DNA of 22,624 nucleotides, from UHGV virus genome UHGV-0204244; one strand, 5' to 3'. The notes under the pieces were generated by a model. That model made no database searches. It saw only the letters and a program-made list of their open reading frames with translations, and was not told the origin of the DNA. The stretch comes from a virus. Shown here in pieces: positions 1 to 1,371 of the stretch (position 1 is its first letter; the number at the start of each line of letters is the position of its first letter). The translations under genes were made by a program, and so were the position numbers.

Positions 1-20
1 TTTTTGCCTGGAGAATTAAG

Positions 21-212
21 ATGACCGATACCAGCCTGATTCCTGAGAAAGAAGTGATGAACAAGCTCGGTGTTTCATCACGTCAGACAATCTGGAACTA
101 TACCAAACGGCACGGATTTCCGAAGCCAGTCAGAACCCACCCCAAATCATACCTTCGTGAAGCTGTTGAAGGGTGGATTCTTAACGGTGGCGTTAATCAG
201 AAATGCTCCTGA
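21..212 (+). CDS. AlpA-family phage DNA-binding protein (excisionase/transcriptional regulator-like)
   Basis: 63-aa ORF with GGAG about 6 nt upstream of the ATG at 21. Sequence '...LGVSSRQTIWNYTKRHGFPKPVRTHPKSY...' fits the AlpA/Xis-type winged-helix pattern (STIYRLIKxGxFPKPIKLG...). It converges on int and overlaps its 3' end by 20 nt. Confidence 0.7.
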   Translation: MTDTSLIPEKEVMNKLGVSSRQTIWNYTKRHGFPKPVRTHPKSYLREAVEGWILNGGVNQKCS

Positions 213-1371
213 TGTGCCAGAACAATTTATCAGCGTGAAGCTCATACGCTTTGCGCTGAGCCTCTATCCAGTCATGTTTATTGTATACGGACATTATCCC
301 GCCAAGTTCATGACCGAGCATTCGCTCAGTAACATGAGGCTCGACATTCATCTCGGACAGCCGTGTAACAAGCGTTCTTCTGAAATCATGTGTTCGCCAG
401 TAACCTAGATCCATCCCTCCCCTTATTCTATTTACGAATCGGTTGGCTGCAGCGATGCTGATCGGTTTGTTTATGTCTTCTCCAGGGAAAAGAACATCAT
501 TGTACGTTGTCATGGCCTTTTCGAGAAAAGGCTTAATTTGTTCGAAGATTGGACGGCGGATAACATTACCCATCTTGCTATGCTCTTTCGGTACGGTCCA
601 TACGTTGTCCAGCAGGTCAAATTCTGTCTTTGTTGCCAGCCTAAGCTCTGAGAGCCTCGCCCCCCACAGCATAAGCATCTGATGAAGTAGCTTATTTGAC
701 GTAGACGCACGGCTTCTTTCAATAGCAAGCCAAATCTTAGCCAGTTCGTGATACGACAGTACCCGATCCCCTACCTCAGCGCGGGAGCCGAAGTCCCTTG
801 GTTGGATGCTCATAATTGCGCAACTATCTATCAACTGACGCCGCATGCACCAACTTATTGCTGATCTTAGTTGACTTAGCACCTGCCTTGCTCGGCGTGG
901 ATTATCTCTTTCTTCTTCGGTAAGCAGGTCAACCCATTGCTTAACCGTGATAGAAGATGCCGGACGATTAGGGAAGGCGTCATGCATGCGCTTCATAACC
1001 GTTGATCGGTAAAGTGCCTGGGTCTTTTCTCTGAGAGTTGTAGAGACGTAGTTGTCGAACCAGTAGTCGAGACACTGGGCGACCGTCATGGAGTTCTCCA
1101 CCTTCTCTTCAAAATAGGTGCGTGGATCCGTTCCTGAGAAATAGAGCTTTCGCAAGTCAGCAGTGATCTGTCTGGCATCCTTCAAAGACAGGGATGGGTA
1201 TCGACCAAGCCCAAGTCGATTAGGCTTGCCATGCCAGCGATAGCGGTACTGGAACTGGATGACCCCCTTCGGTGAAATTCGTACGCTGAGGCCATCGGCA
1301 TCAGCCACTTCTTGTGGGCCCGAATATGGTTTACCATAAATAGTACGCAGTTTTGTGTCGCTTATAGCCAT
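193..1371 (-). CDS. int: Tyrosine site-specific integrase (P4-like family)
   Basis: 392-aa ORF. The N-terminus (GLSVRISPKGVIQFQYRYRWHGKPNRLGLGRYPSLSLKDAR) is typical of the P4-type integrase arm-binding domain. The C-terminus carries HDFRRT and the ...LGH...YNKH... catalytic region with the active-site Tyr. Confidence 0.92.
   Translation of the reverse strand: MAISDTKLRTIYGKPYSGPQEVADADGLSVRISPKGVIQFQYRYRWHGKPNRLGLGRYPSLSLKDARQITADLRKLYFSGTDPRTYFEEKVENSMTVAQCLDYWFDNYVSTTLREKTQALYRSTVMKRMHDAFPNRPASSITVKQWVDLLTEEERDNPRRARQVLSQLRSAISWCMRRQLIDSCAIMSIQPRDFGSRAEVGDRVLSYHELAKIWLAIERSRASTSNKLLHQMLMLWGARLSELRLATKTEFDLLDNVWTVPKEHSKMGNVIRRPIFEQIKPFLEKAMTTYNDVLFPGEDINKPISIAAANRFVNRIRGGMDLGYWRTHDFRRTLVTRLSEMNVEPHVTERMLGHELGGIMSVYNKHDWIEAQRKAYELHADKLFWHIRSISD

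Follow-up and report, generated by a model that had tools for sequence, protein, structure and literature searches.

A Tail-to-Tail Overlapping xis-int Gene Pair in a Standard Phage Integration Module

Introduction

Phage Φ24B (vB_EcoP_24B, HM208303) carries an integrase gene that is inverted relative to that of lambda (Fogg et al. 2011, PMC3064807), in which int is transcribed from pL and pI and is subject to sib retroregulation across attP (PMC2951348). The Φ24B integrase promoter, pInt, was mapped by 5'-RACE, and int was shown to be expressed in lysogens and not to be repressed by CI (PMC3064807). Excision of Φ24B requires a small ORF at the int 3' end, a proven Xis; the authors assigned the protein to the AlpA family only via HHpred (PMC3064807).

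Here we analyzed a stretch of 22,624 nucleotides from the virus genome UHGV-0204244 (hereafter the window), which opens with an AlpA/Xis-like ORF and an integrase gene in convergent orientation. The tail-to-tail layout of the two genes is that of a standard, already described, and widespread phage integration module, and is in this sense ordinary.

Results

The ORF list of the window places a 63-aa ORF at 21-212 (+, ATG start) and a 392-aa ORF at 193-1371 (-, ATG start). The stop codon of each gene falls within the last codons of the other, so that the 20 bp at 193-212 are common to both and code on both strands, for the final 6 codons and the stop of xis and for the final 6 codons and the stop of int. 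The original prediction of a convergent pair with 20 bp in common was therefore confirmed from the ORF list. It had also set this order apart from the xis-int operon of lambda and P22, and rightly so, since the two genes lie on opposite strands here and attP is found upstream of int. Both genes are real.

The product of int (193-1371, -) is a P4-family tyrosine integrase of 392 aa and of the 2851/sbcB type, as judged from Pfam (Arm-DNA-bind_3, 8e-18; Phage_integrase, 1e-16), from phrog_1 (3e-74), and from homology. It shows 57% identity to the Φ24B integrase over 391 residues (E = 8e-172), and 388-390 of the 391 aligned residues are identical in HK140, Sf101, and one lysogen. Residues R239, K266, H328, R331, H354, and Y363 do not vary when the protein is aligned to four relatives, and they are presumably the catalytic R-K-H-R-H-Y set of tyrosine recombinases. 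The integrase of Sf101 is itself 99% identical to those of HK544, mEp234, and 2851 (PMC4159516).

Given the convergent geometry, int requires a promoter of its own. A sigma-70 scan returned no promoter scoring at least 9/12 before int or before xis, which left the int promoter without a firm position. A weak candidate is present at 1396-1425 (-), with a -35 element TTGTGT at 1425-1420, an 18-nt spacer, and a -10 element TATTAT at 1401-1396; it scores 8/12, which is under the scan threshold. Its position is consistent with the Φ24B start, which 5'-RACE placed some 29 nt ahead of the start codon, and the int transcription start might tentatively be expected near 1389-1400. That the two genes have separate promoters, as had been proposed, agrees with the complete relatives, in which xis ends the leftward early operon, and with Φ24B, where 5'-RACE identified an int promoter that does not depend on CI (PMC3064807).

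The 63-aa ORF (21-212, +) is preceded by a Shine-Dalgarno sequence, GGAGA, read from the sequence at 11-15 (+), and was assigned as xis, encoding an AlpA-family winged-helix recombination directionality factor (RDF). The proposal that this small ORF is an AlpA-family, Xis-like gene is borne out by a match to phrog_66 ("excisionase and transcriptional regulator", 1.9e-8) and by 47% identity to the experimentally proven Xis of Φ24B over 58 residues (pairwise, E = 4e-19). Domain searches gave scores below the gathering thresholds of Pfam, with 17.8 bits for Phage_AlpA (PF05930) against a curated cut-off of 21 and 16.8 bits for HTH_17 (PF12728) against 27; a precomputed PF05930 match is present on one relative with 73% identity. 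An NCBIfam search with the 63-aa protein found no match, and a PDB sequence search with the same protein gave nothing better than E values of at least 0.27. The AF2 model of Xis (pLDDT 82.6) contains the elements E6-8, H9-16, H21-31, E43-45, and H46-54. With this model, the top Foldseek matches were the MerR-like winged-helix proteins RacA, CarH, and BldC, all with E > 0.01, and the excisionases RdfS and Pukovnik Xis were found at TM 0.53-0.59, also with weak E values (> 0.01). Its most fitting description is a divergent AlpA-like winged-helix protein. By tblastn, the Φ24B-type xis ORF was found in more than 100 Stx phage records. In several phage records xis is without annotation.

The window begins 20 nt before xis, and the operon context was taken from relatives with 96-100% identity. 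In the complete relatives HK140, Sf101, and the lysogen UTME-3, xis closes the leftward early (pL) operon. Positions 1-5 (+) form the T-run of an intrinsic-terminator-like hairpin, the hairpin itself lying just upstream of the window. In the relatives it reads GCCGC-loop-GGCGG followed by TTTnTTTTT, and its end lies about 6 nt before the xis Shine-Dalgarno sequence. The HK140 record annotates a rho-independent terminator at this place, and both Sf101 and an E. coli lysogen have the same hairpin. No terminator was found before xis in Φ24B and SEN34, so that gating by a terminator would be specific to the 2851 subtype.

The attP core, TTTCACGATTACG (1586-1598, +), is the 13-bp crossover site with sbcB and was located as a unique exact match. 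It is identical to sbcB codons 12-16, and the same 13-bp core forms the attP/attL of Sf101 and phage 2851 (PMC4159516). Attachment at sbcB in the manner of the 2851 type is seen in this core and in the divergence of phage and lysogen right after it: the two are identical up to 1598, where the lysogen matches stop and the lysogen continues as sbcB. In UTME-3 the annotated sbcB CDS begins at the equivalent of position 1553 of the window. From this comparison, 1553-1598 (+) is a phage-borne replacement for the first 15 sbcB codons (MTDTDKQPTFLFHDY) and, after integration, is joined in frame to the host sbcB. A tRNA scan of the window found none, and a tRNA-site island is ruled out, sbcB being the target.

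Three proximal arm-type repeats, TGGTACRC, were identified by pattern count at 1382-1389, 1405-1412, and 1416-1423 (+), with their GTAC cores at about -15/-16, -39, and -50 from the int ATG. Two distal copies were found by pattern search at 1655-1662 and 1667-1674 (+), beyond the core as seen from int. The motif occurs six times in the window (0.77 expected), and five of these six copies flank the core. Among 70 relatives, 51 carry the GTAC triplet at these positions before int, where chance would give 0.21 per 75 nt, and paired GTAC sites are present in phage 86 and SEN34 at the place equivalent to that of the distal repeats. The fixed positions of the arm sites before int argue that the int promoter lies inside attP; with their cores within 50 nt of the int ATG, the proximal sites overlap the zone of the int promoter and the 5' UTR. 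Transcription of int runs away from a repeat-containing region, as had been claimed, and the repeats are the arm-type sites of attP. An AAACAAC triplet within 1451-1574 was considered as a putative site for Xis or an accessory protein, but the window has 13 copies of this motif, and the relatives do not clearly share it.

The layout was then followed across the family in 80 species-representative genome loci that encode a relative of Int (43-99% identity), with Xis homologues found by profile. A Xis-family ORF is present at 60 of the 80 loci and lies on the strand opposite to int in all 60. In 48 of these 60, xis overlaps the int 3' end by 11, 14, 17, 20, or 23 bp, a length that is always 2 mod 3, and the overlap is kept from Escherichia to Orbaceae and some Vibrio. 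The remaining 12 have no overlap: in four of them the two genes stand 2-52 bp apart, and the rest carry either an insertion of up to 1.7 kb or a broken int. Some of these 12 may be decaying prophages. With this conservation, the overlap in the window cannot be put down to chance. At closer range, positions 1-2400 are 96-99% identical to Sf101, HK140, HK544, mEp234, 2851, and 1717, and parts of this region are found in 1147 of the 5426 complete E. coli genomes searched; sbcB adjoins the best matches. The novelty that the original prediction implied for the layout thus did not hold, the arrangement being published and the norm of its family.

Discussion

The locus very probably serves integration and excision in a P22-like temperate phage close to Sf101 and belongs to the Φ24B/2851 "inverted-integrase" family. 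Three features of the Φ24B/2851 module are found here, namely, a homologous Int, a homologous Xis, and a convergent xis at the int 3' end. The KplE1/Sf6 module was ruled out as the family by the co-directional torI-attP-int order in the Sf6 and HK620 annotations.

In such a module, int would be transcribed from its own promoter in the P arm of attP, amid the three arm-type Int sites, and the supply of Int would be uncoupled from the phage repressor and the pL cascade. Int would probably tune its own supply by binding its own promoter region. A precedent is the KplE1 int promoter, which is embedded in the att arms and is repressed by Int and by the RDF (PMC2951348). In Φ24B, int mRNA rises 2.6-fold in double and 7.5-fold in triple lysogens (PMC3064807), which goes against what tight autoregulation would predict. 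The 63-aa AlpA-family protein would act as the excisionase, encoded by the last gene of the pL operon; with xis directly behind the intrinsic terminator, it would in this subtype be made only after loss of the repressor and antitermination. The direction of recombination would then be set by the supply of Xis alone, and Int together with Xis would drive excision. The 20-bp overlap would be an inherited, phase-locked feature, most likely the result of compaction, with short C-terminal tails tolerating the dual coding. Of all this, the gene structures, the homologies, the conserved layout, and the arrangement of the att core and arm sites are direct results of the analysis, and integration at sbcB, like the function of Xis and the CI-independent int promoter, was demonstrated by others on homologues; we infer the autoregulation by Int, the gating of xis by a terminator, and the precise promoter.

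The original prediction read antisense interference between the two transcripts out of the convergent overlap, which finds no support in that form. The tail-to-tail overlap means that the int and xis mRNAs are necessarily partly complementary, and it is conceivable, if unlikely, that the overlap is a regulatory device in which convergent transcription or an int/xis RNA duplex sets the levels of Int and Xis. As one variant, int might be transcribed constitutively into xis, and this antisense RNA would then suppress leaky xis expression and stabilize lysogeny; as another, induced read-through from pL might shut int down after excision. Such a role would fit an overlap that is kept and phase-locked in 48 of 60 relatives, but 12 of the 60 do without it, and its conservation is also expected from the simple inheritance of a compact gene pair. 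More in its favor, only weak terminator-like hairpins are found near the two stops, at 36-23 (-), within xis and past the int stop, and at 514-533 (+), within int, so that each transcript likely extends well into the other gene; in the terminator scan neither hairpin was conserved in Φ24B or SEN34. Sf101 has a minus-strand hairpin about 60-75 nt beyond the xis start, and an int transcript reaching that point would be antisense to all of xis. The expression data from Φ24B speak against this role, however. Upon induction xis is up 51-fold (p = 0.002) and int changes 1.73-fold (p = 0.27), with no fall of int (PMC4651098, Table S4); this result rules out that int mRNA had dropped steeply when the measurement was made, the change being nonsignificant. 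The RNA folding of the overlap is also unremarkable on both strands (z = -1.5 and -1.7), and a search of the whole window against Rfam at gathering thresholds gave no match. A literature search on convergent or antisense int/xis regulation returned nothing specific, and no paper reporting such interference was found in it.

More particularly, the phase-locked overlap might form an antisense or transcription-collision lock that keeps leaky Xis below the threshold for excision. We regard this as quite doubtful; if true, the lock would do the job of sib and pI of lambda by a different route.

It is improbable that the 63-aa protein is mainly a transcription factor, like the AlpA of CP4-57 that activates intA or the AlpA activators of phage-inducible chromosomal islands, and not an architectural excisionase acting at attL/attR. 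The weak Pfam match to Phage_AlpA/HTH_17 and the GenBank name "AlpA family regulatory protein" point in that direction, as does the statement in the Φ24B paper that AlpA affects excision via int transcription (PMC3064807), and RDFs of related modules regulate int promoters too, for example TorI on PintS (PMC2951348); the Φ24B work nevertheless fits a role as directionality factor, the gene stands in the xis position at the end of pL, and both roles are compatible. A last idea, that the small reading frame is open merely by chance and that ORF calling created the overlap, could draw on its 63-aa length, the subthreshold Pfam scores, the lack of an NCBIfam match, and the records in which it is unannotated, but it is effectively refuted by an ORF that has stayed intact in Escherichia, Salmonella, Klebsiella, and Hafnia phages and one Serratia genome at identities of 41-73%, with W52, G56, G57, and N59 invariant among the relatives, by the 60 homologues that a profile built from Xis finds in the expected place, and by a good Shine-Dalgarno sequence, a confident fold prediction, and a homologue of proven function.

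With an excisionase at the end of pL and an integrase made independently of the repressor, Xis alone would gate excision, which helps to explain lysogen stability and multiple lysogeny, as has been argued for Φ24B. Stx2c, Stx1a, and Stx2a phages, as well as phages that modify the O antigen, such as Sf101, owe their place at sbcB of E. coli and Shigella to this module. The window brings nothing new in kind and adds another P22-like phage with the standard module. What the comparative survey adds is modest: the overlap and the arm triplet at -50/-39/-15 are family-wide and rigidly placed, and they could help to annotate overlooked xis genes.

Comparison with Known Systems

With lambda and P22 the module shares an arm- and core-binding tyrosine integrase, a small winged-helix excisionase, and, as seen in its complete relatives, a distal position of xis in the pL operon. 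The lambda xis and int genes point the same way, with a head-to-tail overlap (PMC2951348); the geometry here is wholly different.

The satellite phage P4 has a P4-family integrase with attP beside the int promoter, and its Int and Vis are reported to repress int. In the SXT ICE, xis and int are reportedly transcribed convergently. Neither Int/Vis of P4 nor xis/int of SXT is known to be an adjacent overlapping pair of the Φ24B/2851 family.

The IntS-TorI module of KplE1, HK620, and Sf6 (Panis et al. 2010, PMC2951348) resembles the present one in its dedicated int promoter that overlaps att arm sites; here the int promoter region likewise overlaps three TGGTACRC arm sites within 50 nt of the ATG. 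Both also have an AlpA-family RDF that is not co-transcribed with int and that ends the early-left operon, here as seen in the complete relatives; excision is controlled there via the supply of the RDF and would be so here. The IntS-TorI order, however, is torI-attP-int with the genes co-directional, and integration therefore sends the RDF and int to opposite ends of the prophage. The present module has int in the reverse orientation with attP on its outer side, and both genes remain together, overlapping, at one end. The integrase also belongs to a different subfamily, and the attachment site of IntS-TorI is the argW tRNA.

Φ24B and its twin in the Stx2 phage 86 have homologous Int and Xis, an inverted int, and a convergent xis adjoining the int 3' end, which in Φ24B corresponds to int at 236-1405 (+) and xis at 1389-1571 (-), with a 17-bp overlap. 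In Φ24B, as here, three GTAC-core sites precede int, and Xis is an AlpA-family protein detectable only by sensitive methods; xis faces the direction of the early-left genes, as it does in the complete relatives of the present module. The differences are an overlap of 20 bp here against 17 bp there, and an int start codon ATG here against TTG there. The present module uses the sbcB core TTTCACGATTACG, whereas published work describes Φ24B as promiscuous with an attP of 350-427 bp. Modules of the 2851 type have an intrinsic terminator immediately before xis, and none was found in Φ24B. The function of Xis and the int promoter are known by experiment for the Φ24B homologue, whereas the module of the window is read from its sequence.

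The 2851-type module, as found in Sf101, HK140, HK544, mEp234, 2851, and 1717, is practically the same DNA, with 96-99% identity over 1-1598 or further, an identical Xis, and the same 20-bp overlap, core, and arm repeats. Only the neighboring cargo differs from that of these phages, in that another acyltransferase and tailspike cassette is found here to the right of attP.

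The Convergent int and xis Genes

The 63-aa AlpA-like ORF (xis) lies at 21-212 on the + strand, behind a GGAGA ribosome-binding site read from the sequence (11-15, +), and the 392-aa ORF (int) lies at 193-1371 on the - strand. According to the sequence and the ORF list, the two genes converge and have 20 bp in common (193-212), exactly as described in the original prediction. The int product matched Arm-DNA-bind_3 (8e-18) and Phage_integrase (1e-16) in Pfam as well as phrog_1 (3e-74), and by its sequence is classed as a P4-family tyrosine integrase. The small protein scored under the Pfam cut-offs for Phage_AlpA (17.8 bits, cut-off 21) and HTH_17 (16.8 bits, cut-off 27), and an NCBIfam search with it gave no match; it matched phrog_66, "excisionase and transcriptional regulator", at 1.9e-8. 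Its AlphaFold model, built on a nine-sequence alignment (mean pLDDT 82.6), has the order strand-helix-helix-strand-helix. The closest solved folds were the MerR-like winged-helix DNA-binding domains RacA, CarH, and BldC, and the excisionases RdfS and Pukovnik Xis were also near (TM 0.53-0.59); all E-values exceeded 0.01, as expected with only 63 residues. The model is consistent with an excisionase fold, short of proof.

The window belongs to a P22-like (Lederbergvirus) phage, closest to Shigella phage Sf101 (95.5% identity across 59% of the window), and 0 tRNA genes were found across it. Positions 1-1598 are 96-99% identical to Sf101, E212, HK140, HK544, mEp234, and the Stx phages 2851 and 1717, and several further Stx phage records match likewise; these phage records carry the annotations "integrase" and "AlpA family regulatory protein". 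The window begins 20 nt before xis, and the operon context was taken from complete relatives. In HK140, Sf101, and a lysogen, an identical xis closes the leftward early operon, following genes of the gam/erf/abc2/ead/eag type that share its strand; lambda has xis in this position. Immediately upstream of xis is a hairpin (GCCGC..GGCGG) with a T-run, annotated as a rho-independent terminator in HK140 and found by the scan in Sf101. It ends ~6 nt ahead of the xis ribosome-binding site in 2851-type phages (those with the sbcB-integrating module), and comparison with relatives places its T-run at 1-5, the window start. An upstream terminator of xis was looked for in Φ24B and SEN34 and not found. 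Sf101 has the hairpin twice, ~310 bp apart (3668-3687 and 3980-3999 of locus L002).

A Characterised Homologue in Phage Φ24B

A tblastn search with the 63-aa protein matched 167 phage records, and nearly all of the matches listed fell under both a small ORF and an integrase annotation. Among them, at 46.6% identity, was Stx2 phage 86, a relative named by the Φ24B study (PMC3064807). In the Stx phage Φ24B (HM208303), int (236-1405, +) and the annotated xis (1389-1571, -) converge with a 17-bp overlap, and identity between the window proteins and their Φ24B counterparts is 47% for Xis (E=4e-19) and 57% for Int (E=8e-172). Fogg et al. (PMC3064807) found that Φ24B int is inverted relative to lambda and has its own promoter, that lysogens express it, that CI does not repress it, and that excision requires the small ORF beside the 3' end of int. 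This ORF is oriented like lambda xis, hence under pL and CI, and its product is a distant AlpA-family winged-helix protein (PMC3064807). The convergent, overlapping layout is therefore already known from published experiments on a homologue. The prediction that each gene has an independent promoter is supported by the 5'-RACE mapping of the Φ24B int promoter and by the leftward early operon that contains xis in the relatives.

Conservation of the Overlap

Direct ORF analysis found the 20-bp overlap in the window, HK140, Sf101, an E. coli lysogen, Salmonella SEN34, and a Klebsiella phage, and a 17-bp overlap in phage 86 and Hafnia phage yong2. An Int-alignment scan with one genome per species gave 80 loci (43-99% identity), and in 60 of these a profile from the Xis alignment picked out a Xis homologue, in every case on the other strand from int. 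The overlap was 20 bp in 21 of these 60 loci, 17 bp in 14, 23 bp in eight, 14 bp in four, and 11 bp in one; four loci had a gap of 2-52 bp between xis and int, and eight an insertion or a broken int. All 48 overlaps (11-23 bp) were 2 mod 3 in length. The C-terminal Xis motif W-x3-GG-x-N showed no variation in the nine-sequence alignment, and its final codon falls within the overlap. Given this codon and the conservation across relatives, the overlap is an inherited family trait, neither chance nor peculiar to the window.

Attachment Site and Flanking DNA

The attP core, TTTCACGATTACG, which is the reverse complement of the 13-bp core published for Sf101 and 2851 (PMC4159516), was found once in the window by exact search (1586-1598). 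A 2.4-kb query (1-2400) was matched in part by 1147 of the 5426 complete E. coli genomes; the best matches end at 1598, where the genomes continue with sbcB, and phage and lysogen align identically up to 1598 and diverge beyond. The lysogen sbcB CDS starts at the equivalent of 1553, so that the first 15 sbcB codons are replaced by phage-supplied ones: by lysogen annotation and alignment, the phage-borne start codon and first 15 codons (MTDTDKQPTFLFHDY) occupy 1553-1598 (+). Exonuclease I in lysogens would thus have a phage-derived N-terminus, and lysogen sbcB must be transcribed from phage DNA. That DNA (1372-1552) also carries the divergent int promoter and arm sites, and pL read-through beyond xis and antisense to int would run into sbcB in the sense direction.

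To the right of attP, no ORF of at least 80 aa was found in the ~770 bp (1600-2372) before an acyltransferase gene, and only 1600-2056 of this interval is common to phages E212, EC.P3, and Sf101. Two inverted repeats lie in it, one of 14 nt, near-perfect (1942-1955/1962-1975) and with a T-rich stretch behind it, and one of 17 nt (1986-2002/2230-2246). The O-antigen-type acyltransferase (2373-4165, +) is apparently split in two ORFs in different frames, one with an AT3 domain (2373-3431, +, TTG start, Acyl_transf_3 5e-38) and one with an SGNH domain (3452-4165, +, 1.5e-29). The two domains are usually fused in one protein; the gene could be a pseudogene with a frameshift or encode an enzyme truly made in two parts, or the split could stem from a sequencing error. 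Megablast found no match to the cassette in the phage collection, and among the 5426 complete E. coli genomes only two matched it, both partially.

Putative Arm-Type Repeats and the int Promoter

A repeat/motif search found six copies of TGGTACRC in the window (0.77 expected), five of which flank the attP core, at 1382, 1405, and 1416 directly before the int ATG and at 1655 and 1667 on the other side. These five are best read, from sequence, as putative arm-type Int sites of attP. Accordingly read, int begins within the P arm and is transcribed away from the repeats, a direction that the original prediction had right, the repeats preceding the int ATG. Among the 70 relatives with enough DNA upstream of int, 51 carry GTAC cores in the 75 nt before its start, three or four in each (0.21 expected per 75 nt), three of them at about -50, -39, and -15; those of the window are at -50, -39, and -16. 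Int relatives of less than about 50% identity (L067-L090; Vibrionaceae, Photobacterium, and others) mostly had neither this triplet nor a detectable Xis homologue. It seems that only the Enterobacterales/Orbaceae branch has the rigid architecture, unless it has diverged past detection elsewhere.

In Φ24B, a 1245-bp ORF was predicted first, and transcription begins 46 bp downstream of its start codon (PMC3064807); ORF analysis shows the 1245-bp ORF in phage 86. By arithmetic, the Φ24B start site falls between arm sites two and three, ~29 nt ahead of the true start codon, so the core int promoter overlaps the arm sites. In KplE1, such an overlap was shown to bring about repression of intS by IntS and by the recombination directionality factor TorI (PMC2951348). 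By analogy, int may be autoregulated; the rise in Φ24B int mRNA, 2.6-fold in double and 7.5-fold in triple lysogens (PMC3064807), argues against tight autoregulation in that phage. The best int promoter candidate in the window, TTGTGT-18-TATTAT (1425-1396, minus strand), reaches only 8 of 12, below the threshold of the promoter scan, which did not list it.

AAACAAC occurs three times (two direct, one inverted) at 1451-1574, between the proximal arm sites and the core, and 13 times overall in the window (4.3 expected); the copies at 1451-1574 are possible Xis or accessory-protein sites. Several of the loci compared with the window (L012, L014, L015, L017, L020, and others) have GTAC sites ~280-284 nt upstream of int, which is the position of the window's distal arm sites and unlike what a simple prophage-host junction would give. 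Such loci may be elements that are in tandem or not integrated, or their modules may have the core farther away.

Possible Antisense Interference

By geometry, the int and xis transcripts are complementary over at least 20 nt. A scan for terminators near the two stop codons found none convincing, which suggests that the complementarity is much longer. RNA folding of the overlap region was unremarkable, and an Rfam search found nothing. Expression data bearing on interference were found for Φ24B only, in an induction study whose kit we believe to retain strand information, a point on which the paper is silent. With norfloxacin as the inducer, xis expression increased 51-fold (p=0.002), against a 1.73-fold change for int (p=0.27), a gene that the authors count as unaltered (PMC4651098). 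There is therefore no sign in Φ24B that convergent transcription, once induced, strongly suppresses int. The original prediction stands for the independent promoters and the direction of transcription; that the convergent overlap implies antisense interference found no support and, for int, is weakly contradicted.

Comparison with Known Systems

The value of this analysis is confirmatory, with a small comparative addition on the rigidity of the overlap and of the arm-site positions. Sf101, HK140, mEp234, and 2851 have the same module as the window, and Φ24B and phage 86 have a module of the same family and geometry. KplE1, HK620, and Sf6 share the regulatory logic but not the geometry, with torI, attP, and int in that order on one strand. 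Lambda and P22 differ from the window in having xis and int in the same direction and attP downstream of them.
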